The notes under the pieces are model-generated. The model ran no database searches. It was given only the letters and a program-made list of their open reading frames with translations, and was not told the DNA's origin. A stretch of DNA of 64,000 bases, taken from an uncultured Bacteroidales bacterium (GTDB taxonomy: Bacteria > Bacteroidota > Bacteroidia > Bacteroidales > B18-G4). The DNA lies in the NCBI GenBank assembly GCA_964404735.1, contig CAYOLA010000031.1, positions 1,958-65,957 of the forward strand, read 5' to 3'. Of the stretch, positions 8,850 through 56,595 are shown in pieces. Every line of letters begins with the position of its first letter. Position 1 is the stretch's first letter. The translations under genes and the position numbers were made by a program.

Positions 8850-8884
8850 TATTACATCAAGGGTACCCTTTAAAATCCCAATTA

Positions 8885-9052: not shown

Positions 9053-9082
9053 AAAAAGTGGTAAAAAGTGGTAAAAAGTGGT
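9053..9082 (+). promoter_or_regulatory. Three perfect tandem 10-mers AAAAAGTGGT: candidate MraZ operator
   Basis: aaaaagtggt is repeated exactly three times (9053-9062, 9063-9072, 9073-9082), ending 36 nt upstream of the mraZ start. MraZ proteins are known to bind direct repeats with about 10-nt periodicity upstream of their own operon. Confidence 0.6.
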
Positions 9083-9118
9083 AAATCATTTCATATTTTT
9101 ACCCAAAATTGAATTCAG

Positions 9119-9586
9119 TTGTCGAATATTATCGGAACATACGAGTGCAAAGTTGATGTAAAAGGGAGGCTGATGTTCCCGGCTGCATTTAAAAACCAGC
9201 TGGAAGAGAGCATTGCCGAGGGTTTTGTCATCAAGCGAAGCATATTCAGGAACTGCCTGGAGTTATACCCCATGGCCGAATGGAACCTGGAGAGCCGCCG
9301 CATCAACAGCCTCAACCGTTTTGTCAAAAAGAACGTCGACTTCATCCGGAAATTCATGGCTGGTGTAAAAACTGTTGAACTTGATTCTGCCGGGCGTTTG
9401 CTGATTCCAAAAGATTTGATCAACTACGCCAAAATCAGCAAGGAGATCGTACTTGCATCAGTTGTGAACAAGATCGAGATCTGGGACAAATCGGAATATG
9501 AGGAAGCTGTTGACTATGACCCCGATGAATTCGCCGACCTGGCCGAAGAAGTAATGGGTGATAAGGAAACAGAACCGATTGACTGA
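9119..9586 (+). CDS. mraZ: Transcriptional regulator MraZ
   Basis: 155 aa with two SpoVT/AbrB-like halves (VDVKGRLMFPAAF and LDSAGRLLIPKDL). An in-frame TGA at 9110-9112 leaves TTG 9119 as the only start that preserves the conserved N-terminus. First gene of the dcw cluster. Confidence 0.9.
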   Translation: MSNIIGTYECKVDVKGRLMFPAAFKNQLEESIAEGFVIKRSIFRNCLELYPMAEWNLESRRINSLNRFVKKNVDFIRKFMAGVKTVELDSAGRLLIPKDLINYAKISKEIVLASVVNKIEIWDKSEYEEAVDYDPDEFADLAEEVMGDKETEPID

Positions 9587-10485: not shown

Positions 10486-10865
10486 GCAAGCCGGCAAACA
10501 CATATAAGAAAGCCCTTAAAAAGCGAAAGGAACGAAATGGAAGCGCAAAAGTCGGCGGTACCTTTAAAAACGTGCTGGGTGGGACATTTCTTTCGAATGA
10601 ACGCAGCATTCGCCTCCTGCCCTTCTTCCTTTTCCTCACCCTTCTTGTGATGATTTACATTGGCAATACCTATTACGCCGAAAAGACCGAAAGGGAGATA
10701 CAGGCACTCCGCTCTTCACTGAAGGAGTTACGTTATGAATTCATTACAACGCGTTCGGAGATGATGCACCGCAGCCAGCAGTCGGAGATCGCCCGCCGGC
10801 TGCAGAACACCGGGATCAAGGAATCGAAGGTTCCACCGGTAAAAGTCATTAAAAGCAATCAATAG
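10482..10865 (+). CDS. ftsL: FtsL-like cell division protein
   Basis: 127 aa with a basic N-terminus, a single TM helix (LLPFFLFLTLLVMIYIG) and a coiled-coil segment. It sits between rsmH and ftsI and overlaps rsmH by 4 nt. Confidence 0.6.
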   Translation: MSKPANTYKKALKKRKERNGSAKVGGTFKNVLGGTFLSNERSIRLLPFFLFLTLLVMIYIGNTYYAEKTEREIQALRSSLKELRYEFITTRSEMMHRSQQSEIARRLQNTGIKESKVPPVKVIKSNQ

Positions 10866-10871
10866 CCTCGC

Positions 10872-12992
10872 ATGGACCAGGATATAAAAAAAGACATATT
10901 GTGGCGGGTATATGTGATCTACCTGGGCATACTGCTGATGGCAATGGCCATCATCGGAAAGGCGGCCTATATTCAGTTCTATGAGGGGCAGGAACTGATC
11001 GAAAAGGCTGCAAGCCAGGAACTCCGTTACTTCAGCATTGAGGCCAACCGGGGCAACATCTATGATGCATCGGGAAATTTGCTGGCCACTTCGGTACCCA
11101 TTTTCGAGATCAGGATGGATGTGGCCTCCGACCTCATCCCCGAAAAGTTCTTTAAAGATAATGTCGACTCCCTGGCCATTTGCCTGAGCCGGCTCTTTGG
11201 CGACCGGAGCCGGTATCAGTACAAGCAGGGGCTGGAACAGGCCCGCCGTGAAGGAAACAGGTATTACCTGCTCAAGCGCAGGGTGACCTATGATGAGTTG
11301 AAAGAATTGCGAAAGTTCCCGATCCTGCGCAGGGGCAAGTATCGCGGCGGCCTTATCGTAATCCAGAAAACCAGGCGGAAAATGCCGTTCAACGAGCTGG
11401 CCAAACGAACCATCGGATATGAAAACAAGGAACAGGCATTGTTTGTCGGGCTCGAAGGAGCCTATAACGATGTTCTGGAAGGCATCAACGGGAAACAGCT
11501 GAAGCGCAGGGTGAGCAATGGCGACTGGATACCGGTTTACGGTAAGGATGAGCTGGAGCCGAGCGACGGGCAGGATATCATTACCACCATCGACATCAAC
11601 ATACAAGACGTAGCCGAAAACGCTTTAAGCCGGCATTTGGCCGAGCACCAGGCTTTCCAGGGCTGTGCCATTCTCATGGAAGTCAGTACCGGGCACATCA
11701 AGGCCATTGCCAATTTACGCCTCGACAAGGAAAGCGGCGAATACCGGGAAACCTACAACTATGCCATTGCAGAGGGCTTCGAGCCCGGCTCAACCTTCAA
11801 GCTTCCCACCATACTGGCCCTGCTTGAAGACGGGAAAGTAAACCTGACCGATACCATTGATATTGGCGACGGCTGGATCATGTACCACGGACACACCATG
11901 CGCGACGTAAAGAAGATCCGCGACGGCAGGATCACAGTCAGGGAGGCTTTTGAAAAGTCGTCGAACGTAGGCATCTCCATGATTACACGGGAAGCCTACA
12001 AAGATGATCAGGCTGCATTCGTCAATCGCCTCTACAGCATGTCGCTCAACAAGCCCCTGGGACTGGAAATCACCGGTGAAGCGAAGCCGCTGATCCGGCA
12101 TCCCGACAGCAGCAGTATGTGGTACGGCACCAGCCTGCCGTCAATGTCGATAGGCTATGCGCTGACGGTAACGCCCATACAAACTTTGGCCTATTACAAT
12201 GCCATCGCCAATGATGGGGTGATGGTAAAACCCATGTTCGTAAAGGAGATCAGGCAGGCTGGCAGGATCATCCGCAGCTTCGAAACCGAGGTGATCAACG
12301 GCAGCATCTGTTCAAAGGCCACCATCGACACGGCCCGGTCCCTGCTCGAAGGAGTGGTGGAACGGGGCACCGCCACCAACCTGCTGAACGAACACTATAA
12401 AGTAGCCGGCAAGACCGGCACCGCCCAGATCGCCATCGAGAACCAGGGTTATAACAAAAAAAGCTATAATGCTTCTTTCGTCGGGTATTTCCCGGCCGAC
12501 AACCCGCGCTATTCATGCATCGTAGTGGTAAACGATCCGGTTCAGGGCAAATATTACGGTGGAACAGTAGCCGCACCGGTTTTCAAAGAGATCGCCGACA
12601 AGGTTTATGCCACGCAGCTCGACATTTACCGGGAAAGGGAAAATTTACAGCCGGAGCCCGGCATTCCGCCCGCCATGTATGGCAGGTATGACGACCTCGC
12701 ATGGTTATGCAGCGAACTGAACATTCCGGTTTCGGTTGAAAGCCAGGCGTCGGAATGGGTTGTCAACTTCCGCGAGGCGGAAGGTTTGCGCTTCGCCCCG
12801 CGCCTCATCCGCCAGGATGTTGTCCCCAACCTGCTCGGTATGAATGCGCGCGATGCCATTTACATCATGGAAAAGCTTGGAATGGAGGCAAAGATCAGCG
12901 GATACGGAAAAGTCAGCAGCCAATCGGTCAAACCCGGCAGCCGCGTCAGCCCGGGAAGTGAGATCATCTTAAAACTATCGGAAAAAAGTTAA
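10872..12992 (+). CDS. ftsI: Penicillin-binding protein 3 (transpeptidase FtsI) with C-terminal PASTA-like domain
   Basis: N-terminal TM anchor and class-B PBP active-site motifs STFK, SSN and KTGT. The C-terminal ~65 aa (VPNLLGMNARDAIYIMEKLGMEAKISGYGKV) looks like a PASTA domain. Confidence 0.9.
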   Translation: MDQDIKKDILWRVYVIYLGILLMAMAIIGKAAYIQFYEGQELIEKAASQELRYFSIEANRGNIYDASGNLLATSVPIFEIRMDVASDLIPEKFFKDNVDSLAICLSRLFGDRSRYQYKQGLEQARREGNRYYLLKRRVTYDELKELRKFPILRRGKYRGGLIVIQKTRRKMPFNELAKRTIGYENKEQALFVGLEGAYNDVLEGINGKQLKRRVSNGDWIPVYGKDELEPSDGQDIITTIDINIQDVAENALSRHLAEHQAFQGCAILMEVSTGHIKAIANLRLDKESGEYRETYNYAIAEGFEPGSTFKLPTILALLEDGKVNLTDTIDIGDGWIMYHGHTMRDVKKIRDGRITVREAFEKSSNVGISMITREAYKDDQAAFVNRLYSMSLNKPLGLEITGEAKPLIRHPDSSSMWYGTSLPSMSIGYALTVTPIQTLAYYNAIANDGVMVKPMFVKEIRQAGRIIRSFETEVINGSICSKATIDTARSLLEGVVERGTATNLLNEHYKVAGKTGTAQIAIENQGYNKKSYNASFVGYFPADNPRYSCIVVVNDPVQGKYYGGTVAAPVFKEIADKVYATQLDIYRERENLQPEPGIPPAMYGRYDDLAWLCSELNIPVSVESQASEWVVNFREAEGLRFAPRLIRQDVVPNLLGMNARDAIYIMEKLGMEAKISGYGKVSSQSVKPGSRVSPGSEIILKLSEKS

Positions 12993-37540: not shown

Positions 37541-38647
37541 TTACTGAACAAGCAGCTTACGGGTTAACACCTCGTTGCCATCAAGCTTCAGGGTGGCAAA
37601 ATAAATGCCACCGGGAAAACCGGAAACATCGATCCTGGCTGTTCCGTTCAGGCCTGTAAGCTCGGCGGTTTGCATGACCGAACCAACCATATTCGTGATG
37701 ACAACCTCTGTCAGGCTCACTCCCTCCGGAATGCCATAATCGAACATCACCGTGCTGCCGGCAGGATTCGGATAAGCGGGGGAGAAAACCGTCATGGCCG
37801 CCAGGTCTTCATTGATGCTGCTGGGAGCGGCATTGAATTGCAGCCAGTAAAGGGCATAACTCCCGGGCATCATTGGATCCATAAATACATAAACGATCTG
37901 GGATATGCCTGCATTGCCCTGAGCATCGTAGTAGGCATCAAATGACTCATCGACCGTATCGGCCGGAATGGTAACCATACCGGAAGTATCAACGCCAAAA
38001 GGGTACTCAGTACCACCAAACCAAAACCAGTTTTCGGAATTGGCAACGAGGTATACCGGATTTTTAAAGGCAATCAGGTTGAGGGGGGCGTCGGCATGGT
38101 TGTGTACCTTGATCACACCATGGATGGGGTCGTCGACGTAACCGCTCAACATACGCTGGTGCGCGCTGATCTCTTCGCCGGCCTCGCTTGATAAGCTGAA
38201 CATACTATTATACATGATAACGACAGAAGACGCATTGTCGGGATTGTCCACCTCATAAAAGGTGTAATGTATTGATGAAACACCTGCGGTACCTTCCGGC
38301 CAGTAATGGCCCGAAAAATCATCCGTTGACTCACCCGGGGCAAGTGTAATGGTCAGGGCAGAAGTATCGGTATCGAATGAATAGCAAACACCGCCCCAGC
38401 AAAACTGGCTCTTCGTACCTTCAACCATGGAAAGCTCATTCCTGGCAGTCTTCACGGTAACGGTTTCCGTACCTGTATTGGTAACCGTTACATAGCTGAT
38501 GATCTCCGTATCGGAAGGTGACCCGTTGGCCGTAATGCTCGGACCCATGCTGGTAGGGCCAAATTCCCATGTCAGCAAAAGCGTCGACTGCGAAAAAAGG
38601 AATGCTGATGTAAAAACGACCGATAAAAAAAGTAATAGTTTTTTCAT
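37541..38647 (-). CDS. Secreted protein of unknown function with T9SS C-terminal sorting domain
   Basis: Signal peptide MKKLLLFLSVVFTSAFLFS and two internally duplicated ~85-aa domains. C-terminal T9SS-type domain (FSPAYPNPAGSTVMFDY...GGIYFATLKLDG...RKLLVQ). Confidence 0.7.
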   Translation of the reverse strand: MKKLLLFLSVVFTSAFLFSQSTLLLTWEFGPTSMGPSITANGSPSDTEIISYVTVTNTGTETVTVKTARNELSMVEGTKSQFCWGGVCYSFDTDTSALTITLAPGESTDDFSGHYWPEGTAGVSSIHYTFYEVDNPDNASSVVIMYNSMFSLSSEAGEEISAHQRMLSGYVDDPIHGVIKVHNHADAPLNLIAFKNPVYLVANSENWFWFGGTEYPFGVDTSGMVTIPADTVDESFDAYYDAQGNAGISQIVYVFMDPMMPGSYALYWLQFNAAPSSINEDLAAMTVFSPAYPNPAGSTVMFDYGIPEGVSLTEVVITNMVGSVMQTAELTGLNGTARIDVSGFPGGIYFATLKLDGNEVLTRKLLVQ

Positions 38648-38820
38648 GTTATTGTTGTTTAGTGATTAATGAATCTTTCGTTGATGCAAAGGTAATAATA
38701 ATGCTTGTAAAAGATAAGTTAATGCCCGGTTTTTGACTTTCAACAGGCATCCTTTGACCTTTAAAATGGTCTCTCTTCTATAAATGTTGATACTTATATA
38801 TAAAAATATCTCTTAATTAA

Positions 38821-38852
38821 TTGGCATCAGGGAGCTAAAAATTATATTTTTG
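38821..38852 (+). promoter_or_regulatory. Candidate promoter (TTG-N21-TATTTTTG)
   Basis: -7 box TATTTTTG at 38845-38852 and a partial -33 (aTTGg, 38820-38824). The box ends 41 nt upstream of ATG 38894. Confidence 0.4.
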
Positions 38853-38893
38853 CATCTAAACATGTTCATTGTTGCAAACTAAATAAAAAAAAG

Positions 38894-40552
38894 ATGAAAA
38901 AAACACTGACTACACTCTTCGCTTTACTTTTGGTTTTAAGTTTTTCATTCGCGCAGCAGGTTGCCCGCGAAAAGGTAGTGCTGGAGATTGGTACCGGCAC
39001 ATGGTGTCCCTTCTGCCCGGGAGCTTCGATGGGAGCCGATGACCTGATCGCCAACGGGCATGATGTTGCCGTTATCAAATACCACAATGGCGACAACTAC
39101 ACCAACGCTGCCTCCAATGCCAGAAACAGCTATTATAATGTTAGCGCGTACCCGACCGCTCATTTCGACGGGGGTCTGCCTTATGCGAACGGAAGTGCCA
39201 GCCAAAGCCTTTATCCGCAGTATTTGCCCCGTTACAACCAGAAAATTGCCATACCTTCATCCTTCACCGTCGACATTGAAGGAACCTCGTCGGGGCTGAT
39301 CGATTTCAACATTGATGTAACCATTGAAATGGTCGACCCCTATTCGGGTTCCGACATCCGCCTGCACTGCGTGATCACCGAATCGGATATCCAGCAATAC
39401 TGGCAGGGACAGGACCACCTGAATTACGTGGAGCGGATGATGCTGCCGACTCATTCCGGTATACAGCTCGATTTTTCGGGAGGAAACATTATCGAACAAA
39501 ACTATAGTTTCGCACTCGACCCATCATGGAATGCCGAACATTGTGAGATCGTGATCTTCCTTCAGGAAAACGGCAGCAAGGTGATCCTGCAGGGTTCACT
39601 GCGCGAGCTGATCGACATGGGGAACGTGAACAATTATGATGCCTCACTATCGCAACTTTCCAATCTGCCTGTAAAAACCTGTGCCGGCATTTTCGCCCCT
39701 TCCTTCATCCTGCGTAATAACGGAAACGAAAATCTCACCAGTATCACCTTACAATACCAGGTAAATAACGGAGAACTAAGCACCTATGACTGGACAGGCG
39801 ACCTTGAGTTTCTTGAAGAAGAACTGATTTACCTTCCGGAAATCGCCTTTGCCCCCGAAGAGGAGAACCTGCTCATGATCTATTCGGAAAACCCCAACGG
39901 CAACCCCGACCAGTACCCGCTCAACGACACGATCGTTGCGGTGGTTCCTCTTGCCGATATCGTCCCGGCTGATGTAAACCTGATCCTGAGGACCGACAAC
40001 AATCCTTCGGAAACCACCTGGGAAGTTTTGGATGATATGGGCAATGTTGTTTATTCGGGCGGGCCATACACACAAGCCAGCCAAACCATCATGGAAAGCT
40101 TTGAACTCCAAAACCTGAGCTGTTACCAGTTTTTTGTTTACGATGCCGGTGGCGACGGGCTGAACTCACCGGGCTTCTTTGCCCTGTATTACGGCAGCAA
40201 CAGCTATATCCTGCAGGGTGTCGGCGACTTTGGCTTTATGTTGGGAACGGATTTTCAAACCGACGATGACACAGACATTGACGAGCTGGCAGGAAACCCG
40301 ACAATACAGGTTTATCCGAACCCATTCAGCGATCACACAAACATTGCACTTACCACACAAACGTTCAGCCATGTAAAAGTGATGATGTTCAACATCCTTG
40401 GCAAAAAAGTTTATGAATCTGATGAAGGCATGCTTGCCGCAGGCGAACACCTGATCGGGCTCAATGCAGCTAACCTGGAAAATGGTGTTTATCTTATCAG
40501 ACTGATGGTGAATGATTTAATGATCACCGAGCGGGTGATGATCTCTAAATAG
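38894..40552 (+). CDS. Omp28-related/thioredoxin-fold secreted protein with T9SS C-terminal sorting domain
   Basis: Signal peptide, GTGTWCPFCPGA (a CxxC in a thioredoxin-like context, as in Omp28-related proteins), and a C-terminal T9SS-type domain (IQVYPNPFSDHTNIAL...GVYLIRLMV...VMISK). Confidence 0.7.
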   Translation: MKKTLTTLFALLLVLSFSFAQQVAREKVVLEIGTGTWCPFCPGASMGADDLIANGHDVAVIKYHNGDNYTNAASNARNSYYNVSAYPTAHFDGGLPYANGSASQSLYPQYLPRYNQKIAIPSSFTVDIEGTSSGLIDFNIDVTIEMVDPYSGSDIRLHCVITESDIQQYWQGQDHLNYVERMMLPTHSGIQLDFSGGNIIEQNYSFALDPSWNAEHCEIVIFLQENGSKVILQGSLRELIDMGNVNNYDASLSQLSNLPVKTCAGIFAPSFILRNNGNENLTSITLQYQVNNGELSTYDWTGDLEFLEEELIYLPEIAFAPEEENLLMIYSENPNGNPDQYPLNDTIVAVVPLADIVPADVNLILRTDNNPSETTWEVLDDMGNVVYSGGPYTQASQTIMESFELQNLSCYQFFVYDAGGDGLNSPGFFALYYGSNSYILQGVGDFGFMLGTDFQTDDDTDIDELAGNPTIQVYPNPFSDHTNIALTTQTFSHVKVMMFNILGKKVYESDEGMLAAGEHLIGLNAANLENGVYLIRLMVNDLMITERVMISK

Positions 40553-41423: not shown

Positions 41424-43448
41424 TTACTCCATATTCAACAGTTTTTCATCAACCATGTTCGGCAGGGTGACTTTCAGCAGCGGCTCGGTCTTCATGGCCC
41501 GTTTGATGGCAAAGATTGCTTCATCATTTCTGGCCCAGCTCCGCCTGGCAATCCCATTATTCACATCCCAGTGCAGCATGCTTTTCAGGCGCCGGCCAGC
41601 GTCAGCGCTGCCGTCCAGCAGCATGCCAAAGCCCCCGTTGATGACTTCGCCCCAACCCACGCCGCCACCGTTGTGGACCGACACCCAGGTCGCCCCGCGG
41701 AAGCTGTCGCCGATCACATTCTGTATAGCCATATCGGCCGTGAATTGCGAACCGTCATAGATATTGGATGTTTCACGGTATGGGGAATCAGTTCCCGACA
41801 CGTCGTGGTGGTCTCGTCCGAGCACGATGGGCGCGCTGACCTCCCCTTTTCTGATGGCTTCATTAAAAGCATCCGCTATGCGAGTACGCCCTTCGCAATC
41901 GGCATAGAGTATCCGTGCCTGCGAGCCCACCACCAACTTATTTGCCTCTGCCTGTTTGATCCAGCGAAGGTTATCGTTTAGTTGCTGTTTTATCTCGTCC
42001 GGAGCATCACCAGCCATCCTTTCAAGGATGCCGGCTGCTATACTGTCAGTGGTGCGCAAATCCGCCGGATCGCCCGAAGTGCATACCCAGCGGAAAGGGC
42101 CAAATCCGTAATCGAAACACATGGGGCCCATAATATCCTGCACATAGGACGGATAGCGGAAAGTGCCATCCTCCTTCATAATGTCGGCCCCCGCCCTTGA
42201 AGACTCCAGCAGAAAGGCATTGCCATAATCGAAAAAATACATGCCACGGGCAGCGAGGGTGTTAATGGCGGCTACCTGTCGCTGCAGCGACTCCTTTACC
42301 TTTTCTTTAAAAGCAACCGGATCTGCGGCCATCAGTCTGTTCGATTCCGTAAAGCTGAGCCCGGCCGGATAATAACCCCCCGCCCAGGGGTTGTGCAGTG
42401 AAGTCTGGTCGGAACCCAAATCAATTCGGATATCGCGTTTAACAAGCTCCTCCCAGAGGTCCACGATATTTCCCTGGTAAGCCAGTGACACGGCTTCCTT
42501 CGCATCACTGGCCCTGAGCATCCGTTCAATGAGTTGACCAAGGTTCGTATAAAGTTCATCAACCCATCCCTGCCGGTGTCTTTTCTCTGCCGCCGAAGGG
42601 TTGACTTCGGCAATCACCCCTACTGCACCAGCGATAACAGCGGCTTTGGCCTGTGCCCCCGACATTCCTCCCAGACCTGATGAGATAAAAATCCTTCCTC
42701 CCAGGCCTGCCTTACCGTCCTTCAACTTCCTTCCGGCATTGAGCACGGTGATGGTTGTACCGTGCACAATCCCCTGCGGGCCGATATACATGTATGATCC
42801 GGCAGTCATCTGACCATACTGCGACACCCCAAGCGCATTAAACCTCTCCCAGTGATCGGGGCTTGAATAGTTGGGAATGACCATGCCATTGGTTACCACC
42901 ACCCGCGGGGCGTCGGAATGGGAAGGGAAAAGCCCCAGTGGATGCCCCGAATACATGACCAGGGTTTGTTCACCGGTCATCTCAGCCAGGTATTTCATCG
43001 TCAGCAGGTATTGCGCCCAATTCTGGAAAACTGCTCCGTTGCCCCCATAGGTGATGAGCTCATGGGGATGCTGGGCCACGGCAGGGTCAAGGTTATTCTG
43101 GATCATGAGCATGATGGCGGCAGCCTGCGGCGAGCGTGCCGGATATTCACCGATCGGCCTGGCATGCATGGGGTAATCAGGTCTGAAGCGGTACATATAG
43201 ATCCGGCCATACCGCTTCAGCTCATCGGCAAACTCCCCGGCCAGCACAGCATGATGTTTCGGATGAAAATAGCGTAGTGCATTTTTCAGGGCAAGCCTTT
43301 TTTCATCTGTCGTGAGAATATCTTTTCGCACCGGGGCATGGCTCACACTGTCATCAAATATCTTCGCAGCGGGTAACTCCCCGGGTATGCCCTGCAAAAT
43401 TATCTTCCTGAATTCTTCTGTATTCATGCGCAATGGGTTTTCTTTCAA
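41424..43448 (-). CDS. hutU: Urocanate hydratase
   Basis: 674 aa with LITYGGNGAVFQNW, GLGGMSGAQ and ATWVSVHNGGGVGWGEVINGG, which are characteristic urocanase blocks. Confidence 0.9.
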   Translation of the reverse strand: MKENPLRMNTEEFRKIILQGIPGELPAAKIFDDSVSHAPVRKDILTTDEKRLALKNALRYFHPKHHAVLAGEFADELKRYGRIYMYRFRPDYPMHARPIGEYPARSPQAAAIMLMIQNNLDPAVAQHPHELITYGGNGAVFQNWAQYLLTMKYLAEMTGEQTLVMYSGHPLGLFPSHSDAPRVVVTNGMVIPNYSSPDHWERFNALGVSQYGQMTAGSYMYIGPQGIVHGTTITVLNAGRKLKDGKAGLGGRIFISSGLGGMSGAQAKAAVIAGAVGVIAEVNPSAAEKRHRQGWVDELYTNLGQLIERMLRASDAKEAVSLAYQGNIVDLWEELVKRDIRIDLGSDQTSLHNPWAGGYYPAGLSFTESNRLMAADPVAFKEKVKESLQRQVAAINTLAARGMYFFDYGNAFLLESSRAGADIMKEDGTFRYPSYVQDIMGPMCFDYGFGPFRWVCTSGDPADLRTTDSIAAGILERMAGDAPDEIKQQLNDNLRWIKQAEANKLVVGSQARILYADCEGRTRIADAFNEAIRKGEVSAPIVLGRDHHDVSGTDSPYRETSNIYDGSQFTADMAIQNVIGDSFRGATWVSVHNGGGVGWGEVINGGFGMLLDGSADAGRRLKSMLHWDVNNGIARRSWARNDEAIFAIKRAMKTEPLLKVTLPNMVDEKLLNME

Positions 43449-43570: not shown

Positions 43571-43578
43571 TATCTTTG
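43571..43578 (+). promoter_or_regulatory. Candidate -7 promoter box TATCTTTG ahead of the adenylation/reduction cassette
   Basis: Exact TAnnTTTG match 25 nt upstream of ATG 43604, in a 155-nt intergenic region. No -33 TTTG. Confidence 0.35.
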
Positions 43579-43603: not shown

Positions 43604-44872
43604 ATGAAGACCTATTCCCTTGAAACCATTGTTTCAGTTGCCCGCGAGTTATCGGAATATTACGGGCAACGCTATCGCAACCTACCACAAAAAGGCTGGA
43701 AGCTTTCTGAACTCCCTCCCGTCGACCAGGCCATATTCTGGGAATATAACCGGGTAGAAAACAACCGCCTGTTGACAGGGCCCATGACTGACGGCATCAT
43801 CTTCAAAAGCGGCGGCACGACGGGCATGCCCAAATTCTCGGTTTACAGCCGGGAAGAGTGGGAAACCATGACGGGTACCTTTGGCTACCATCTCGCCGAA
43901 AGCGGGCTGAAAAAAGGCGACCGGATTGCCAACCTTTTCTATGCCGGGGAGTTGTACAGCAGTTTTCTCTTCCTCCACGACAGCCTGGGACGCTGCCCGG
44001 TCGACACCATGCTGTTTCCTATCTCCGGGGCCTCTCCACTCGAATTTATTGCCCGGGAGCTTCGTGATTTTCGTATTAATACATTGCTGGGAGTACCGAC
44101 GCAACTGATCAGCCTGGCCGAGTATGTCAGGTCAAAACACTTAAAGGGCCTGAAGGTCGAAAAAATATATTTTGGCGGTGAAAGCATGTACGAGGATCAG
44201 CGTGAGCTGATGCATGAAGTATTCCCAGGGGTGCAGATTTATTCGGTGGGCTATGCCAGCGTTGACGGCGGACTGCTGGGCTATATCGATCCCGGATGCG
44301 GGTTCAACGAACACCGCGTGTTCGACGGTTACAACATCATAGAGATCATTGACGAGGACAGCGGTGATGTAATTGAAGAATGCAACAGGGAAGGACGCAT
44401 ACTCACCACCAACCTGTCGAGGCTGCTGATGCCCGTCATCAGGTACCCGGCAGGCGATCGCGGCATATGGGTGGAAGAAGCCGGAAAAGAAAACAGGAAA
44501 TTTAAAATAATGGGGCGATCGGAAGAGGGGGCCCGGATCGGGGTGGTTACCATGTATGTTGACAATTTCATGCACATCCTCCACCTCATGAAACCCTTAT
44601 TCCAGGCAGCCAACTTCCAGATGGTGATCGACCACATCGGGAAGCTCGACAAGCTTAGCCTGCGCATCGCCGTTGACGACCCTGCGGCGGTGCAGCCCGC
44701 ATGGGAAGAAGAGCTGCTCGACACCATCTTCAGCGAGCGGCCCGAATTCAGAGAAGAGATCGCCATCAAAGGCGTCCACCCCATCAGCATTGAATGGATT
44801 CGTCCGGAAGAGCTTGCTGTAAACCCGCGCACAGGCAAGATACGCCGCATTATCGACAACCGATTCAAATAA
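43604..44872 (+). CDS. PaaK-like adenylate-forming enzyme (phenylacetate-CoA ligase / F390 synthetase family)
   Basis: 422 aa with P-loop FKSGGTTGMPKFSVYS, TLLGVPTQL, KIYFGGESM, GYASVDGG, RYPAGDRGIWVEE and the terminal TGKIRRIIDNR (candidate A10 lysine). Confidence 0.75.
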   Translation: MKTYSLETIVSVARELSEYYGQRYRNLPQKGWKLSELPPVDQAIFWEYNRVENNRLLTGPMTDGIIFKSGGTTGMPKFSVYSREEWETMTGTFGYHLAESGLKKGDRIANLFYAGELYSSFLFLHDSLGRCPVDTMLFPISGASPLEFIARELRDFRINTLLGVPTQLISLAEYVRSKHLKGLKVEKIYFGGESMYEDQRELMHEVFPGVQIYSVGYASVDGGLLGYIDPGCGFNEHRVFDGYNIIEIIDEDSGDVIEECNREGRILTTNLSRLLMPVIRYPAGDRGIWVEEAGKENRKFKIMGRSEEGARIGVVTMYVDNFMHILHLMKPLFQAANFQMVIDHIGKLDKLSLRIAVDDPAAVQPAWEEELLDTIFSERPEFREEIAIKGVHPISIEWIRPEELAVNPRTGKIRRIIDNRFK

Positions 44873-44880
44873 ACCAACAT

Positions 44881-46056
44881 ATGTCAAAGTTTGAACAGCT
44901 ACAGGTTCCCGACCCGACTGCCCTGCAGGCCGTCCGGGAAATTTGCGAAATTGATGAGCCCTTCCGCACAGATGCTGACACGGACGAATTATTCCTGCAG
45001 GCCATGCGCGAGATCATGCAATGGCATTACGAACGATGCCCTTTTTACAGGAACTTCCTCGACAGGGAACAATTCAGCCCCGCCAAACTGAAGGGTATTC
45101 GTGACCTGCCGGCCATCCCTTTCATTCATGCCAACTTTTTCAAGACACATTCGGTAAAATCCGTCCGGGAAGAAGACATAGAGATCACCCTCACTTCCAG
45201 CGGCACCATGGGCCAGAAGAGCCGGATGTTCTTCGACCACTGGTCCATCGCCTCCGGCAGGCGGATGGTCGACTTTGTATACGACTACTTCGGATGGGTT
45301 AATCCCGAAAAAGAAACCAATTACCTGGTGAGCAATTATGAGCCCGAGGCAGGTTCAACGCGGGGCACAACCAACACCAGCCGCTTTCTGACCAAATACG
45401 CCCCGGCCAGGCATATCAATTATGTACTTCGGCTGACCGGGGAAGGTACGCATGAGTTCGACCTTTTCGGCAGCATAGCGGTGCTGAAACAATATGAAGC
45501 CGAAGCGATCCCGGTCAGACTGATCGGCTTCCCCTCATTCATCTTTTTTATCCTGGAAAGGATGAAGAACCTGGGCGTGAAGGACCTTCGTCTGCCCGAA
45601 GATTCCCTGGTCTTCTTTGCCGGCGGGTGGAAGGGCTATGCCGACCGGCAACTCTCCAAACCTGAGCTATACGGACGCCTGGGTGAGCAACTTGGCATCC
45701 CCGACTTCCGCTGCCGCGACGGCTTTGGCTCGGTCGAACACTCGGTGCCTTACATAGAATGTGAACGGCATCATATGCACGTCCCGGTCTGGTCCAGGGC
45801 ATTCATCCGTGATGTAAGAACCCTTGAAGTGCTGGGTTACGAAAAGCCCGGCTATCTCAGTTTTGTAACGCCCTACATCACCTCCGTGCCTGCCATCAGC
45901 GTTGTGATGGGCGACCTGGCCGTGATGCACCCGCCCGAAGCATGTGGATGCGGCATCAACACGCCCTGGTTTGACATTGCCGGCAGGGCCGGATTATCCA
46001 AAAACAAGAGCTGTGCCGTTTCGGCTGCCGAACTGCTCAAAAAAGAAGCCGTATAA
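44881..46056 (+). CDS. LuxE-family acyl-protein synthetase-like adenylating enzyme
   Basis: 391 aa from ATG 44881; the 44794 start overlaps the previous gene. N-terminal ...CPFYRNFL..., LPAIPFIHANFFK, TSSGTMGQKSRMF and FFAGGWKGY fit my recollection of the LuxE family pattern. Confidence 0.65.
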   Translation: MSKFEQLQVPDPTALQAVREICEIDEPFRTDADTDELFLQAMREIMQWHYERCPFYRNFLDREQFSPAKLKGIRDLPAIPFIHANFFKTHSVKSVREEDIEITLTSSGTMGQKSRMFFDHWSIASGRRMVDFVYDYFGWVNPEKETNYLVSNYEPEAGSTRGTTNTSRFLTKYAPARHINYVLRLTGEGTHEFDLFGSIAVLKQYEAEAIPVRLIGFPSFIFFILERMKNLGVKDLRLPEDSLVFFAGGWKGYADRQLSKPELYGRLGEQLGIPDFRCRDGFGSVEHSVPYIECERHHMHVPVWSRAFIRDVRTLEVLGYEKPGYLSFVTPYITSVPAISVVMGDLAVMHPPEACGCGINTPWFDIAGRAGLSKNKSCAVSAAELLKKEAV

Positions 46057-46066
46057 AATTATCATT

Positions 46067-48580
46067 ATGAAAAATAAGGAATATATCTGGAGAGGTGAAT
46101 GGATCAGCGAAGCTGAATTCGGAAAGAAAGCGGGCAACATTGGCCGCGACATGGCCCCCGACCTTCGGCTGCGCCTGGAACCGGCCACATTGTTCCGCGC
46201 CTGTGCCCGTTACAGGGACCTTTTGCTGGAAGGCGACTCACAGGAACTCATCGACTCCCTTGTGCAGGCCGGCAACACCCCTGAACATGCCCATCAGACC
46301 ATTGAAGAAATTGTTGCCTTTCTGGATCCGGGCTTTCTGGAAGAAAAAATGAAAAGGGAACTGGGGAGCGACAATCCCTTTATCCTTCACCGAAACAACT
46401 TCCGCAACGACACTTTTGAAGCCTGGGCACCCCTGGGCATGCTGGTACACGTAGTGCCGGGAAACGCCCCGACGGTGGCACCGCTCAGCGTGCTGGAAGG
46501 ACTCATGGCCGGAAACATCAACGTGCTTAAGAACAGCAGCAGAAACGGCAACTTCCCGCAGCTTATCCTGAAAGGCATCGTGGATGCCGATCCCTCCGGC
46601 ACCCTCAAGCCTTTCGTATATGCCTTCCGCCTGTCCTCTTCACGCCAAGACATCCTCAGTATCCTCTTCAATGAAGCCCACGGCATTGCCGCATGGGGCA
46701 GTGAAGAGTCGGTGGCCTCCGTGAGGCGGATGACCCCTGAGAACACCCGCATCATCGACTGGGGGCACCGCATCAGCTTCTCCTACGTGAGCAGGAAGAT
46801 GAAGGACGATGTTGTTACCCTTGAAAACATAGCCTACGACATTTGTGTGATCGAGCAGCAGGCCTGTTCCAGCCCGCAATGCCTTTACCTCGAAACCTCC
46901 GCCAGGGATGAACTGATGGCCTTTGCGCACAACTTTGCGGAAGTGCTCGACAGGGTCTCGCAGCGCTTTTCCCAGCCGAAACTGAGCATCGCTGAGATGG
47001 CCGAGATCACCAATGTGACCCAGGTCACCAGGCTGGGCGCTGCATTGGGCGAGTCGGAAGTAATTGAATCTGCCGGGAAGACCTGGCGGATACTGATCGA
47101 TTTTAAGCCGGGCCTGCGCCCATCACCGCTGTATCGAACGATCTGGGTGAAACCGCTTCCGAAAGACAAGATCGTAAGCACCCTCAGGCCCCTGAGAAAT
47201 TATCTGCAAACAGCAGGGCTGGCCTGTAAGCTGGAAGAGCTTGGAAGCATGAGCCGGGAGCTTTTACAGGCCGGCGTGACCCGCATCAAGCGGCCCGGCC
47301 ATCACCTCGACGGCTATGCCGGTGAGCCCCACGACGGGGTGTACGCCCTGCAACGTTATTGCCGGCGGATATGCCTGCAGCTTGGCAACCTCACTGACGG
47401 CATCACCAGCTTCGCCGACCTGGAAGAGCAAGCGGCACCCGTACTACCTGCCAACACCCCCGTCATCCATAAAGATGAATATATCAGGAAAAAAGTGCCG
47501 GAGAGGTTTTCAGAACTCTTTTTTAAGAGCGGGGGTACAAGCGGAAAGCCCAAGATGGCTGTTTATACCTACGAAGACTATCACAAACAGATGTTTGCCG
47601 CTTCCGAGGCCCTCTTCGCCGCCGGCCTCGATCCAACCACCGACCGCTGCATGAACCTATTCTTCAGCGGAGAACTGTACGGGGGCTTCATCAGTTTCTG
47701 GACCATCCTCGAAGGCATGGGGGCCATACAGTTTCCCATGACAGCCGTCCCCGACTACGGACATGTGGCCCAAACCATCATCGACAACAAGGTGGACACC
47801 CTCCTGGGGATGCCATTCTACTTTTCACAGCTTTTCGAAGCCTGCAAAAAAGAGCTGAAGGAATATGGCGGCATTCGTAAGATCTTTTATGCCGGTGAGC
47901 ATATGAGCAAGGCCATGCAGCAATATTACAAGGATGAATTTGGGGTGGAAGTGGTCAAGTCGGCCATATACGGCAGCAACGACGCCGGGCCGCTCGGCTA
48001 TAGCTGCACCCGTTGCGAAGGCAGCATCCACCACGTGATGACCCGCACCCAGTTCCTGGAGATATTTAAAATGGAGGAAGACAAACCCGTTGACAAAGGA
48101 GAAACAGGCAGGCTTATCTTCACCAGCCTTTCAAGGAAAGGGCAGAACCTTTACCGCTATGAGATCGGCGACCTGGGACGCTGGGTTGAAGAGCCCTGCC
48201 CCTGCGGAAGAAAAGCCCCGCGCTTTGAGTTGCTTGGCCGTTTCGGCGACATCTTCAAGATGGGGCCGCTCTTTAACTATAACACCTTTGCCAGGACACT
48301 GGAAAACAGCTTTGGCTATAAAGATGAGCTGCAATTGCTGCTCGACACCGCCGGGGCAGGCAAACAAAAGATCAGCGTGCGGCTGAACCGGAATGCCGGA
48401 CTGGACACGAAAGAAGTATGCGAGGCTCTGCTGGAAGGCGATCCCGTGTTGTACGACATGGTCATGAACGACAACCTCATTGAGCTTGAAGCGAAACCGG
48501 TGGATGGCACCGCCTTCACCAAGATCGAAACCAGCGGCAAACTGCAAAAGATCATCGACAAACGCAAACAAACCTCATGA
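46067..48580 (+). CDS. Fusion protein: LuxC-type acyl-CoA/acyl-protein reductase (N-terminal ~440 aa) plus a second PaaK-like adenylating module (C-terminal ~390 aa)
   Basis: 837 aa from ATG 46067. The N-terminal half has HVVPGNAPTVAPLSVLEGLMAGNINVLKNSS and EQQACSSPQ (a candidate catalytic Cys in an ALDH-like fold), as in LuxC. The C-terminal half has FFKSGGTSGKPKMAVYT, TLLGMPFYF, KIFYAGEHM, RYEIGDLGRWVEE and SGKLQKIIDKR, colinear with 43604-44872. Confidence 0.7.
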   Translation: MKNKEYIWRGEWISEAEFGKKAGNIGRDMAPDLRLRLEPATLFRACARYRDLLLEGDSQELIDSLVQAGNTPEHAHQTIEEIVAFLDPGFLEEKMKRELGSDNPFILHRNNFRNDTFEAWAPLGMLVHVVPGNAPTVAPLSVLEGLMAGNINVLKNSSRNGNFPQLILKGIVDADPSGTLKPFVYAFRLSSSRQDILSILFNEAHGIAAWGSEESVASVRRMTPENTRIIDWGHRISFSYVSRKMKDDVVTLENIAYDICVIEQQACSSPQCLYLETSARDELMAFAHNFAEVLDRVSQRFSQPKLSIAEMAEITNVTQVTRLGAALGESEVIESAGKTWRILIDFKPGLRPSPLYRTIWVKPLPKDKIVSTLRPLRNYLQTAGLACKLEELGSMSRELLQAGVTRIKRPGHHLDGYAGEPHDGVYALQRYCRRICLQLGNLTDGITSFADLEEQAAPVLPANTPVIHKDEYIRKKVPERFSELFFKSGGTSGKPKMAVYTYEDYHKQMFAASEALFAAGLDPTTDRCMNLFFSGELYGGFISFWTILEGMGAIQFPMTAVPDYGHVAQTIIDNKVDTLLGMPFYFSQLFEACKKELKEYGGIRKIFYAGEHMSKAMQQYYKDEFGVEVVKSAIYGSNDAGPLGYSCTRCEGSIHHVMTRTQFLEIFKMEEDKPVDKGETGRLIFTSLSRKGQNLYRYEIGDLGRWVEEPCPCGRKAPRFELLGRFGDIFKMGPLFNYNTFARTLENSFGYKDELQLLLDTAGAGKQKISVRLNRNAGLDTKEVCEALLEGDPVLYDMVMNDNLIELEAKPVDGTAFTKIETSGKLQKIIDKRKQTS

Positions 48581-50064
48581 CCGGGTTCCATCATTCAAAG
48601 CTCAGCATACAGAACCGCATCGATTACCTGCCGGAAGCGGAAGCATTTGTTGAAAAAATATCGGAGATCAGCGGGTTCAGCAGGCACGACAACAAACAGG
48701 TGCAGCTGGCCCTGGAAGAGATCCTGACCAACATCATCAAATATTCTTTTTTACCCGGCCAAAAAGGAAATATCGATCTGGAATTTATCCAAATGCCGGC
48801 CGGGCTGCAAATCCATATCCGGGTGAAGGGTATCCCCTTCGACCCCGCACTCTTCCCGGTATACAGCAAAGAAGAGCTGGAAAAGAATTACAACGACCGC
48901 GGGCTGGGCACCTTCCTGGTCGGGCAGGTCATGGATGAATTGTCGTACGTGAACCATGGCCATGAGGGGATCGAGGTCATCCTTATGAAACATCTCCCGA
49001 CCCGTTCCATCGGGCAGATGATCGATGCCGGGGAAACGGAAGCCATGGAGCATGGCAAAGAGCAGGCAAAGAGCCAGACAGTGTTTACGACCGGGCCGAT
49101 GCAGGCGCACGAAGCGGTTGAAGTTTCGCGCCTTGCCTATTATTGTTACGGATACAGCTATCCCTACGAGAACATCTATTATCCCCAAAAGGTAGCGCAA
49201 CTGAACAGGTCGGGGCAGCTTGTATCCTGGCTTGCCAGAACCGGCAATGGGGAGATCATCGGCCATTCGGCACTGAACATGGCACATGGGAACAATGCAG
49301 AGATCGGCATAGCATTCAGCAACCCCTTATACCGCGGCATGGGCGTGATGAACAGCCTTTGGGAAGACCTAATCGGAAAAGCCGTGAATATGCGCATCTG
49401 CGGTTTTTATGCCATGACCGTAACCACCCATCCCTATTCCCAGAAAGCGGCGCACCATTTCGGCATGCACGACTGCGTGCTGCTGGTGTCGCGGGTGCCC
49501 ACACTGAAATTCAGGGATATCAGGGAAGATATACATCCCAGGGAAAACATCATGATCACCTACCGTTACCTCCATCCTCCTGCCCGGCTCATCCTGCATC
49601 CTCCGCCCAGGCATCGCAAAATGATCATGGACATCATTGGCAACACCGGGGTTAAAGCCGAATATCCCGTAACGAAACCGGAATTGTCCCGGCTGGAGAG
49701 AAAGCGGACCAGGCTGAGCATTCATCGCAACAGGGACTTCATCACAGCCACCATCCGGATCGATCATTATGGCGCGCACACGGCCGACAGGGTCAGGGAT
49801 GCACTGAAAAGCCTGTGTATAGGCAGGTATGAAACCATATACCTCTACCTGAACCTGAACGACCCCTTTACCGCACTTCTGTGTCCTGAATTTGAGACCC
49901 TGGGCTTCTTCTTTGCAGGCGTTTTCCCGGGCGATGAAAACAACACTTTCCTCGTTTTACAATACCTGAACAACCAGTTGATGGATTACGGACTAATGAA
50001 GCTTGATGAAGGATTTGGCAGCGTGCTTGCCCATTATGTAAAAAACTGCGACCCCGGTCAGTAA
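48577..50064 (+). CDS. Fusion protein: RsbW/SpoIIAB-type anti-sigma serine kinase domain plus GNAT acetyltransferase domain plus an unassigned C-terminal region
   Basis: 495 aa. The HATPase_c_2-like N-box is LALEEILTNIIKYSF and the G-box is DRGLGTFLVGQVMDELSY. The GNAT core is GEIIGHSALNMAHGNNAEIGIAFSNPLYRGMGVMNSLW. No motif was recognised in the last ~200 aa. 4-nt overlap with the upstream gene. Confidence 0.65.
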   Translation: MTGFHHSKLSIQNRIDYLPEAEAFVEKISEISGFSRHDNKQVQLALEEILTNIIKYSFLPGQKGNIDLEFIQMPAGLQIHIRVKGIPFDPALFPVYSKEELEKNYNDRGLGTFLVGQVMDELSYVNHGHEGIEVILMKHLPTRSIGQMIDAGETEAMEHGKEQAKSQTVFTTGPMQAHEAVEVSRLAYYCYGYSYPYENIYYPQKVAQLNRSGQLVSWLARTGNGEIIGHSALNMAHGNNAEIGIAFSNPLYRGMGVMNSLWEDLIGKAVNMRICGFYAMTVTTHPYSQKAAHHFGMHDCVLLVSRVPTLKFRDIREDIHPRENIMITYRYLHPPARLILHPPPRHRKMIMDIIGNTGVKAEYPVTKPELSRLERKRTRLSIHRNRDFITATIRIDHYGAHTADRVRDALKSLCIGRYETIYLYLNLNDPFTALLCPEFETLGFFFAGVFPGDENNTFLVLQYLNNQLMDYGLMKLDEGFGSVLAHYVKNCDPGQ

Positions 50065-50666
50065 TTCTCGGGGATATTCTTCATGATGTTGAAAATGAAT
50101 TCACGGGCACGGAAAAGCTGTGCCTTCACGGTGCCGAGCGGCAGATTCAACTCTTCAGCAATCTCTTCGTAGGAATATTCTTTATAATACCGCAGTTCGA
50201 CAAGGGTACGGTAATGGGGCTTCAGTTTTTCCACCACTTCACGCATCAGCCCGATCTTTTCCTTTTTTATGACCTTTTCCTCGGGATCGGGGCTGTCGGA
50301 GGCAACGATGTTGGCCAGATCCTGACCCTCATCACCTTCTGTGCCAAGGTTAACCGCAAACGACTGCTTTCTCTTTTTCCGCATATAATCGATGCAGTTG
50401 TTTGAAGCGATCTTGAACAGCCATGTGCTGAAAGCGTAATCGGGGGTGTATTGTTCAAGTTTCTTGAATGCCTTTCCGAATGCTTCAATGGTAAGATCAT
50501 CCGCATCGCTGGCATTATTGGTCATCTTCAGCAGCATGAAGTAAAGCGAATCGCGGTAATTGTTCATCAGGGCGGCGTAGGCTTTCTGGTCGCCACGGCT
50601 AATGGCTGCCATCACCAGCTGATAATCACGCAGGGCTTTATCGGTGAGATTTGGATTTACTTCCAT
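50058..50666 (-). CDS. RNA polymerase sigma-70 family (ECF-type) sigma factor
   Basis: 202 aa. Region 2 has DLTIEAFGKAFKKL...FSTWLFKIASNNCIDYMRKK and region 4 has YSYEEIAEELNLPLGTVKAQLFRAREF. The start overlaps the upstream GT2 stop by 10 nt. Confidence 0.85.
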   Translation of the reverse strand: MEVNPNLTDKALRDYQLVMAAISRGDQKAYAALMNNYRDSLYFMLLKMTNNASDADDLTIEAFGKAFKKLEQYTPDYAFSTWLFKIASNNCIDYMRKKRKQSFAVNLGTEGDEGQDLANIVASDSPDPEEKVIKKEKIGLMREVVEKLKPHYRTLVELRYYKEYSYEEIAEELNLPLGTVKAQLFRAREFIFNIMKNIPENY

Positions 50667-55083: not shown

Positions 55084-56595
55084 ATGGCACTCATCAATTC
55101 CCTCATATCATGGCTGATGAAAAAGCGCTATCACCAGATCGAGCTTTTTACCAAATATCCGCATGAGGTTCAGGCCGAATGGCTGAAGAAACTACTGAAT
55201 ACCGCCCGCGACACGGAATGGGGAAAACGCTACGAATTCAAAACCATCGATTCCTATGAGAAGTTCCGTAGCCGTATCCCCCTGATCGACTATGAATCGA
55301 TACACCCCGAGATTGAGCTGCTCATGAAGGGCCATCAGAATATCATGTGGCCGACCGACATCAGGCTTTTTGCCAAATCGGCCGGGACCACCAGCGAAAA
55401 AAGCAAGTTCATTCCGGTAAGCAATGAATCGATCGAAGAGTGCCACTTCAAAGGCGGAAAAGATATGCTGGCCATGTACTGCCATAATCACCCCGACACC
55501 CATCTCTTTGACGGGCGCGGGCTGGCCATGGGCGGCAGCCACATCATCCGGGAAGTCAACAATGAGGAATACCTCATCGGCGACCTTTCGGCGCTCATTA
55601 TCCGAAAACTTCCCCACTGGGCCGAATTCATCAGGGTTCCCAAGCGCAGCCTCGCCCTGCTCGACGAATGGGAGATCAAGATCGAAAAAATGGCCCATGC
55701 CACCATCCCCCACAACGTGACCAGTCTCTCGGGCGTTCCTTCCTGGACCCTGCTGCTGCTGAAACGCATCCTCGACATCACCGGCAAAAACAACATATTG
55801 GAAGTATGGCCCAACATAGAGGTATTCTTCCACGGTGGCGTGAATTTCGACCCCTACCGCAAGCAGTTCGAAGAGCTGCTGCCATCGCCCGACATCAATT
55901 ACAAGAATACCTACAATGCATCCGAAGGTTTCTTCGGGCTGCAGGAGGCCGACCAGGACGACCTGCTGCTGATGCTTGACTATGGCATTTATTACGAGTT
56001 TATACCCGTATCGGAACCCGACAGCGAACAGCCGACAGCCCTGCCCCTCCGGGAGGTTGAGACCGGTGTAAACTACGCCATGGTGATCACCACCAACGCC
56101 GGCCTCTGGCGTTATAAGATCGGCGATACGGTGATGTTTACCTGTACCGACCCTTACCGGATCAAGATCACCGGACGTACCAAAAGCTTTATCAATGCCT
56201 TCGGCGAGGAGCTGATCGTTGACAATGCCGAAAAAGCGCTGGATGTGGCCAACGGAAAATGCAATTCGGTGATCAGCGACTATACAGCCGCCCCGGTGTA
56301 TTTCGAGGGCCGGGAAAAGGCCGCCCACGAATGGCTGATCGAATTTGAAAAAGAACCGGAAAACCTCGACTTCTTCGCCGAGGCCCTGGATAACGCCCTT
56401 AAGTCGGTTAACTCCGACTATGAAGCCAAACGCTACCACGACATGGTGCTGCGTAAACCCATTGTACGAATCCTGCCTCCCCATACGTTCTATAACTGGA
56501 TGAAAAAACGCGGCCGCCTCGGCGGGCAGAATAAAGTGCCCCGGCTATCGAACGACAGGCGCTATGTTGACGACATCCTCGATATGATCAAATGA
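55084..56595 (+). CDS. GH3 (auxin-responsive promoter) family adenylate-forming protein
   Basis: 503 aa. The N-terminus ...HEVQAEWLKKLLNTARDTEWGKRY... and the blocks FAKSAGTTSEKSKFIPVS, YNASEGFFG and RYKIGD match bacterial GH3-family proteins. Confidence 0.8.
   Translation: MALINSLISWLMKKRYHQIELFTKYPHEVQAEWLKKLLNTARDTEWGKRYEFKTIDSYEKFRSRIPLIDYESIHPEIELLMKGHQNIMWPTDIRLFAKSAGTTSEKSKFIPVSNESIEECHFKGGKDMLAMYCHNHPDTHLFDGRGLAMGGSHIIREVNNEEYLIGDLSALIIRKLPHWAEFIRVPKRSLALLDEWEIKIEKMAHATIPHNVTSLSGVPSWTLLLLKRILDITGKNNILEVWPNIEVFFHGGVNFDPYRKQFEELLPSPDINYKNTYNASEGFFGLQEADQDDLLLMLDYGIYYEFIPVSEPDSEQPTALPLREVETGVNYAMVITTNAGLWRYKIGDTVMFTCTDPYRIKITGRTKSFINAFGEELIVDNAEKALDVANGKCNSVISDYTAAPVYFEGREKAAHEWLIEFEKEPENLDFFAEALDNALKSVNSDYEAKRYHDMVLRKPIVRILPPHTFYNWMKKRGRLGGQNKVPRLSNDRRYVDDILDMIK

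Follow-up and report, generated by a model that had tools for sequence, protein, structure and literature searches.

A LuxC–PaaK fusion gene in a probable leupABCD-type operon of an uncultured Bacteroidales bacterium

Streptomyces makes the protease inhibitor leupeptin (acetyl-Leu-Leu-argininal) with three activities: acetyltransferase, ATP-dependent 'leupeptin acid synthetase' and a reductase that uses ATP and NADPH. Li et al. (2020, Angew Chem 59:17872, doi 10.1002/anie.202005506) reportedly described a pathway to leupeptin and its analogs that is independent of nonribosomal peptide synthetases (NRPSs) in Klebsiella, Photorhabdus and Xenorhabdus. The leup operon gives rise to leupeptin and a Lys analog, from which pyrazinones are formed (PMC11480411), and for K. 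oxytoca/michiganensis the primers leupA_f and leupB_r, the position of leupABCD in the K. oxytoca CAV1374 genome and a set of genes described as 'transporter and leupABCD' have been published (PMC8283571). Here, we analyzed a 64,000-nucleotide stretch of contig CAYOLA010000031.1 (assembly GCA_964404735.1) from an uncultured Bacteroidales bacterium, referred to below as the window, in which a single open reading frame (ORF) at 46067–48580 joins a LuxC-type reductase to a PaaK-like module. By sequence comparison this fusion gene is a homolog of leupB in a leup-type cluster, and the surrounding region (43604–50064) is a four-gene operon homologous to leupABCD that most likely makes an N-acyl peptide aldehyde without an NRPS.

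The connection to leup was first suggested by the components, namely a GNAT, three adenylating modules, one reductase and often an exporter, and was then tested by using the published primers to find the Klebsiella locus. Metagenome contigs were scanned for exact matches to leupA_f, which yielded eight loci; one of them (L092) carries both primers exactly, separated by 1,235 bp as in the published amplicon. The genes of L092 run in the order MFS transporter, LuxE-family protein, 803-aa LuxC+AMP-binding fusion, PaaK-like ligase (Pfam AMP-binding and AMP-binding_C_2) and 305-aa GNAT, and the last four span ∼5.83 kb when counted, as published for CP011636.1, from a point 50 nt ahead of leupA_f; this is the published cluster length. 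The four protein types of L092 recur one-to-one in the window, where they likewise form a tight operon:

43604–44872, plus strand: LeupC-like stand-alone PaaK-type adenylate-forming ligase, 422 aa (Pfam AMP-binding and AMP-binding_C_2; NCBIfam PaaK-type models below cut-off)
44881–46056, plus strand: LeupA-like LuxE-type acyl-protein synthetase, 391 aa (Pfam LuxE, E 5.9e-34; PDB LuxE 7xc6_E, E 7e-20)
46067–48580, plus strand: LeupB-like bifunctional protein, LuxC reductase plus PaaK-like ligase, 837 aa (Pfam, NCBIfam, BLASTP, alignment, AlphaFold2)
46244–47365, plus strand: LuxC acyl-thioester reductase domain of the fusion, aa 60–433 (Pfam LuxC, E 1.5e-82)
47366–47515, plus strand: linker between the two halves, aa 434–483 (alignment of 18 fusions)
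47516–48577, plus strand: PaaK-like adenylation/ligase module of the fusion, aa 484–837 (NCBIfam, BLASTP, 18-fusion alignment, fold matches)
48577–50064, plus strand: HATPase_c_2 plus LeupD-like GNAT protein, 495 aa (Pfam HATPase_c_2, E 2.9e-15; Acetyltransf_1, E 1.3e-6)

The genes are separated by gaps of 8 nt and 10 nt, and the last one starts 4 nt before the end of the fusion gene. Between LeupB of L092 and the fusion protein of the window, identity is 39% across 764 aa (E 4e-176) and the Pfam architecture is the same; the two share the LuxC+PaaK fusion itself, the catalytic Cys (QQACSSPQ), the P-loop, the A10 lysine and a CPCG motif. LeupA is 50% identical to the LuxE-like protein (E 3e-134), with a common GGWK motif and C-terminal Cys, and LeupC is 39% identical to the stand-alone ligase (E 5e-97). 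The similarity of LeupD to the product of 48577–50064 is lower by BLASTP (32% over 146 aa, E 3e-15); alignment of LeupD with the profile of the HATPase-GNAT family covers the entire LeupD body and corresponds to window aa 172–463 (hhalign probability 99.3%, E 1.7e-20).

The pairing also holds at the level of individual modules. LeupC shares 39% identity with the stand-alone ligase and the LeupB module 25%, making the stand-alone ligase the ortholog of LeupC, while the fused module is 43% identical to the Klebsiella LeupB module compared with 27% to its paralog in the same cluster. Orthologs thus share 39–43% identity and cross-paralog pairs 25–27%. It is this reciprocal pattern, together with the four one-to-one homologs, that identifies the fusion gene as a LeupB homolog.

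The fusion gene opens with ATG and encodes 837 aa without an internal stop; the one-ORF union of a LuxC half and a PaaK-like half (Pfam AMP-binding, aa 488–685), on which the original prediction was built, is borne out. The catalytic residue of the LuxC half is Cys267 (nt 46865–46867) in the motif EQQACSSPQ. A profile of the fusion family, built from an alignment of 18 diverse homologs (A1), matches LuxC of PDB entry 7xc6_A with the catalytic Cys aligned (E 1.6e-31), and both C260 and C267 are invariant in that alignment. In the AlphaFold2 model (mean predicted local distance difference test score, pLDDT, 82.6), the N-terminal half matches 7xc6_A (E 1e-18), in agreement with its earlier assignment to LuxC, and the C-terminal half matches PaaK-type ligases, including BT_0428 (4rvn, E 1.6e-22) and PaaK1 (2y27); no single solved structure matched by the model joins the two halves. 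The linker is conserved among the 18 fusions and contains a PaaK-like 'TK(E/D)' segment in which K469 is invariant, as is F486 just beyond it; its pLDDT is ∼75–83 over most of its length.

The C-terminal module begins at about PaaK position 68–85, and it therefore lacks the first ∼65 aa of PaaK. Its P-loop, SGGTSGKPK, occupies nt 47528–47554, inside the interval 47519–47557 in which it had been placed, and its A10 lysine is K825 (nt 48539–48541). P-loop residues S488–G490, G493 and P495, hinge residues R725 and D728, and K825 are invariant across the 18 fusions. In the stand-alone ligase, the corresponding P-loop (S69–K77) and A10 lysine (K412) are at least 95% conserved among 76 orthologs. 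Since both motifs are conserved in each module, both modules look catalytic, and the suggestion that one copy might be catalytic and the other regulatory loses its footing.

The two modules are paralogs, as had been proposed from six matched sequence blocks, all of which were aligned by BLASTP (fusion aa 484–833 against stand-alone aa 65–420, 27% identity, E 2e-31); the stand-alone gene does lie two genes upstream, with the LuxE-like gene between. The modules score 109 bits against each other and at most 59 bits against any solved PaaK. Across 84 loci, orthologs of the stand-alone gene are 39–92% identical to the window copy and 24–32% identical to the fused module. Because orthologs from different phyla retain 39–52% identity compared with 25–27% between the paralogs, the duplication is, on this evidence, ancient and not local.

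Fold and adenylation motifs are shared with the PaaK-family ligases PaaK1/2 (2Y27, 2Y4O) and BT_0428 (4R1L). The NCBIfam PaaK/DVU_1553-type ligase models cover aa 484 to ∼750 of the fusion, all far under their equivalog cut-offs: PaaK equivalog scores are 52–75 bits for the fusion and 61–67 bits for the stand-alone ligase against cut-offs of 646–700. Phenylacetate catabolism was rejected as a function on these grounds (TIGR02155, 52 bits for the fusion and 67 bits for the stand-alone ligase against 646), and no paa catabolic genes lie nearby. A set of Cys and His residues was also found in the fused module (C647, H656, C711 and C713, nt ∼48005–48205, including a CxCG motif), invariant in the 18 fusions. 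Similar residues in the LuxE-like protein (C294, H297/H300, C355 and C357) are at least 95% conserved among LuxE/LeupA orthologs. The set is absent from the stand-alone LeupC-like ligase, and BT_0428 (4r1l) also carries CPCGR; in the fusion and the LuxE-like protein these residues may form a structural zinc site.

The LuxE-like gene, which sits between the stand-alone ligase gene and the fusion gene, encodes K251 in GGWK, R369 and a C-terminal C378 in KNKSCAVS, each at least 95% conserved among 76 orthologs. Their counterparts in Photobacterium LuxE are K238, R355 and the acylated C364 (PMC9157457). In the LuxC–LuxE complex of Photobacterium phosphoreum (PDB 7XC6), the acyl group is transferred from LuxE to LuxC and then reduced (PMC9157457). 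The LuxC fold and acylated cysteine of that complex, and the adenylation lysine, arginine and C-terminal cysteine tail of its LuxE, are all found in the window, and these shared residues fit a chemistry that would proceed from an adenylate through acyl-Cys on LuxE and acyl-Cys on LuxC to an aldehyde. The window differs in having neither LuxD nor LuxAB and in the fusion of LuxC to an additional ligase module, and its substrate is likely an acyl-peptide as opposed to the myristate of the lux complex.

One acyltransferase, three adenylating modules and one reductase are what the synthesis of an N-acetyl tripeptide aldehyde needs, and a sequence of steps can be proposed on this basis. The LeupD-like GNAT body would N-acylate the first amino acid from an acyl-CoA, probably acetyl-CoA. 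The two PaaK-type modules, namely the LeupC-like stand-alone ligase and the C-terminal half of the fusion, would each activate the carboxylate of an acyl-peptide as an adenylate and then join the following amino acid to it. The LeupA-like LuxE homolog would adenylate the final carboxylate and hold it as a thioester on its own C378, from which the acyl group would pass to Cys267 of the LuxC domain for NADPH-dependent reduction to the peptide aldehyde. These steps match the three activities of leupeptin synthesis in Streptomyces. With the last ligase and the reductase in one polypeptide, the free acid would stay close to the LuxE/LuxC reduction site, and the last ligation would be coupled to reduction.

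This assignment departs in part from the original prediction, in which the fusion was seen as a covalent pairing of activation with reduction. Because a separate LuxE-like gene with a C-terminal Cys motif is always present, the activate-then-reduce pair is most likely the LuxE-like protein and the LuxC domain, as in lux; a fused activate-and-reduce pair is less likely, and peptide-bond formation ahead of the reduction is the more likely task of the fused PaaK module. Substrate channelling in the fused enzyme is plausible. The expectation of more than one acid substrate fits the leupeptin homology, since acetyl-Leu, acetyl-Leu-Leu and acetyl-Leu-Leu-Arg would each need activation, giving three carboxylates. 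Members of the PaaK family such as NatL2, AjiA1, ClxA and DdaG form ester or amide bonds; in our searches, these enzymes came up as fold or sequence relatives only.

Aldehydes of this kind are also produced by NRPSs with a terminal reductase, as exemplified by the flavopeptins, the dipeptide aldehydes of gut Clostridia and small peptide aldehydes of Streptomyces (PMC10548850). The expected product class, a protease-inhibiting peptide aldehyde, is the same, but the leup-type route has none of the condensation, peptidyl carrier protein or short-chain dehydrogenase/reductase-type R domains of an NRPS. The enzymology is unrelated, and the route convergent.

The LuxC+PaaK fusion is a known and widespread architecture and does not represent new biology. 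The original prediction had treated it as unusual, yet it is standard in a large family and the same as that of the 803-aa LeupB. At E<=1e-10 a protein-cluster search returned 1,196 homologs; of the best 120 listed, almost all are full-length (∼835 aa), and they come from many phyla. HMMER recovered 418 representatives at E<=1e-30 from a set clustered at 50% identity, mostly of 800–900 aa, and a scan of one genome per species found a relative of the fusion in 516 genomes from many bacterial phyla and one methanogen. A second, more distant LuxC+PaaK fusion subfamily was also encountered, with ∼30% identity matched in two stretches and lengths of ∼880–900 aa (P0311, P0313 and P0324, for example).

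LuxE, fusion and PaaK genes are kept together in nearly all of the 81 distinct loci, which belong to Bacteroidales, Alpha-, Beta- and Gammaproteobacteria, Bdellovibrionota, Elusimicrobiota, Obscuribacterales, Gemmatimonadaceae, actinomycetes, Desulfobacterota and the archaeon Methanosphaerula. In the loci inspected, the fourth partner adjoining them is always a GNAT protein, and it takes two forms: a HATPase_c_2+GNAT protein (495 aa in the window; ∼25 loci) and a GNAT of ∼385 aa encoded immediately before LuxE (19 of the 20 other loci tested). The two forms are related (hhalign probability 94.6%, E 6.5e-8). The ∼385-aa GNAT usually has an MFS_1/MFS_3 transporter before it, and an MFS exporter-type gene is frequent overall. 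None adjoins the window cluster, which is flanked by genes for urocanase and an extracytoplasmic function (ECF) sigma factor, whereas one is present in Klebsiella and many other lineages; an adjacent MFS transporter may not be a defining feature of the leup family.

Many actinomycetes (loci L049–L084, from Streptomyces, Kitasatospora and Kutzneria) have a cluster of leupC-like, GNAT, leupA-like and leupB-like genes. In these high-GC loci ORF calls were too noisy for a clean count of neighborhoods, and L051 alone was annotated with Pfam; there (3040–11868) a PGA_cap (CapA-like) gene follows the leup-like cluster. The leupeptin of S. roseus has been attributed to an NRPS cluster (preprint 10.1101/2020.10.26.356543). 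A complete leup-like cluster of LuxE, fusion, PaaK and HATPase-GNAT genes was also seen on the chromosome of Methanosphaerula subterraneus (L046, 7164–13589). Its fusion protein is 50% identical to that of the window, closer than most bacterial homologs, which points to horizontal transfer.

Several observations weigh against reading the locus as a leupeptin-type operon. Identity to the characterized cluster is only 32–50%, which leaves room for another acyl-peptide aldehyde, or for some other small molecule, as the product. The role given to each protein is inferred from homology, and amide-bond formation by PaaK-type modules, as opposed to the formation of CoA thioesters, is likewise inferred, by analogy. 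The window cluster is without an adjoining transporter gene, its gene order is C-A-B-D as compared with A-B-C-D in Klebsiella, and its host is an uncultured Bacteroidales bacterium as compared with the gammaproteobacterial hosts of leupABCD. The reference locus L092 is itself a metagenome contig whose Klebsiella label derives solely from the species-specific primers. Finally, the LeupD-like protein carries an additional N-terminal RsbW-like domain (HATPase_c_2), absent from Klebsiella LeupD.

This additional domain (aa 12–137, nt 48610–48987) resembles RsbW and SpoIIAB and precedes the GNAT acyltransferase body (aa ∼172–495, nt 49090–50061), in which the CoA-binding motif R253-G254-x-G256 is conserved. 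Foldseek with a model of the protein gave generic SpoIIAB/RsbW and GNAT matches only. The HATPase domain retains the N-box E/N and a G2-like GLG, and its fold matches SpoIIAB and RsbW; the Asp/Glu of the G1 box, which reads DxGxG in RsbW-type proteins, is replaced in the clade of the window (IRVKGIPFDP). Lysobacterales, Azonexus, Sulfuricellaceae and Methanosphaerula have a gene for a SpoIIE/PP2C phosphatase within the locus, and Lysobacterales also have RsbW and STAS genes there. A dCache-HAMP-SpoIIE (PP2C) phosphatase was seen at 13551–16360 of L002, and others in L024, L027, L028, L031, L033, L035, L014, L016 and L046; the phosphatase-bearing loci are from lineages whose LeupD has the HATPase domain. 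The proximity of phosphatase, RsbW and STAS genes to HATPase-bearing LeupD proteins suggests control by partner switching.

These features give some purchase to a leup-like cluster in which the last protein is mainly regulatory. Pat/AcuA-type GNATs acetylate the catalytic lysine of acyl-CoA synthetases, and the GNAT of the window could act in the same manner on the three adenylating enzymes, with its RsbW-like domain providing a link to partner switching. A lysine of the target type is kept in all three adenylating modules, and members of the HATPase_c_2+GNAT family are found apart from leup genes as well, in Desulfomonile (L089) and Syntrophomonadaceae (L090), in addition to the phosphatase, RsbW and STAS neighbors described above. 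We nonetheless consider this explanation improbable. In Klebsiella and most lineages the GNAT that belongs to the core of the cluster has no HATPase domain, the N-acetyl group of leupeptin is one that a GNAT would supply directly, the usual G1-box Asp/Glu is missing from the window protein, and a phmmer search of limited sensitivity found no STAS or PP2C gene in the 64-kb window. A biosynthetic LeupD-like acyltransferase thus remains the preferred assignment for the last protein.

A lux-like fatty-acid reductase, in which fatty or aryl acids would be reduced to aldehydes or alcohols for lipid, wax or surface glycan with the PaaK modules supplying acyl-CoA to LuxC, is unlikely. LuxC and LuxE do constitute the fatty-acid reductase pair of bioluminescent bacteria, LuxC accepts acyl-CoA in addition to acyl-LuxE (PMC9157457), and LuxC/LuxE homologs lie beside fatty-acid genes in the flagellin glycosylation islands of Aeromonas (PMC7874193). 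In the window, however, the neighborhood contains no luxA, luxB, luxD, acyl carrier protein or fatty-acid synthesis genes, and plain reduction of an acid to an aldehyde would have no use for a GNAT or for three separate adenylating modules; all four genes pair one-to-one with the leupeptin cluster. The scores against the NCBIfam equivalogs are low as well (71 bits for LuxC, where the cut-off is 750, and 98 for LuxE, where it is 550), and with the missing luxABD context they led us to reject a canonical lux system. The literature on lux-type and PaaK proteins that we retrieved covers lux structures, reporter plasmids, the Aeromonas islands and a Riemerella LuxE-homolog mutant, and none of it describes the fusion.

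An error of assembly or sequencing that joined two separate genes into one ORF is vanishingly improbable: a few ∼370–480-aa proteins that cover one half only are found among the 150 best representatives (they may be split forms or contig-end fragments), but hundreds of independent full-length fusions have the conserved linker, an identical protein is encoded on an independent metagenome contig from the Joint Genome Institute (JGI), and Klebsiella LeupB shows the same architecture. Conservation of fusion and linker across homologs refutes the artefact for practical purposes, and with it the missed stop or frameshift that the original prediction had asked to be excluded.

The leup-type operon is preceded by a urocanase gene (41424–43448, minus strand) and followed by the ECF sigma-factor gene (50058–50666, minus strand), which is convergent with the leupD-like gene, the 3' ends overlapping by 7 nt. 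Close Bacteroidales relatives (L005–L010) have a convergent 202-aa ORF at the position of the sigma factor; this may be synteny only, though the sigma-factor gene is adjacent to an anti-sigma-like domain. One further element was read from the sequence ahead of the operon:

43571–43578, plus strand: promoter motif match TATCTTTG, a weak sequence-only lead, 26 nt ahead of the first operon gene

The octamer TATCTTTG fits the Bacteroidetes −7 promoter motif, TAnnTTTG. A search of the 64-kb window with Rfam gave nothing at gathering thresholds. Five kb downstream of the cluster lies a GH3-family gene (55084–56595, plus strand; Pfam GH3, GH3_M and GH3_C) whose product is of the acyl-acid amido synthetase type, another adenylating and amide-forming enzyme, and upstream, at 37541–40552, are two proteins with a type IX secretion C-terminal sorting domain (Por_Secre_tail), one of them with an Omp28 domain; both are in keeping with a Bacteroidota origin of the window.

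Leupeptin is a very widely used protease inhibitor, and in Klebsiella and Photorhabdus the leup cluster has been linked to host colonization and pyrazinone signaling (PMC11480411). The identification of LeupB gives an anonymous Bacteroidales operon a testable function, and it illustrates how the public labels 'acyl-CoA reductase' and 'PaaK-like' hide a peptide-aldehyde pathway. Our survey suggests that this pathway is far wider than the gammaproteobacteria: among the 516 species-level genomes are those of Streptomyces, Kitasatospora, Bacteriovoracaceae, Melainabacteria-type Obscuribacterales, Elusimicrobiota and a methanogen. The sole part of the locus that may be new is the RsbW-like domain of the LeupD homolog, a possible new regulatory link: fused to a LeupD-like enzyme, such a domain could bring peptide-aldehyde synthesis under on/off control by partner switching. 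Two broader proposals can be offered, both tentatively. In the first, the HATPase-LeupD fusion of Bacteroidales, several proteobacterial lineages and a methanogen might tie peptide-aldehyde synthesis to STAS/PP2C switching or, conversely, report the state of the substrate to a sigma factor. In the second, leup-type clusters might constitute a pan-prokaryotic NRPS-independent route to protease-inhibiting peptide aldehydes and not a gammaproteobacterial speciality.

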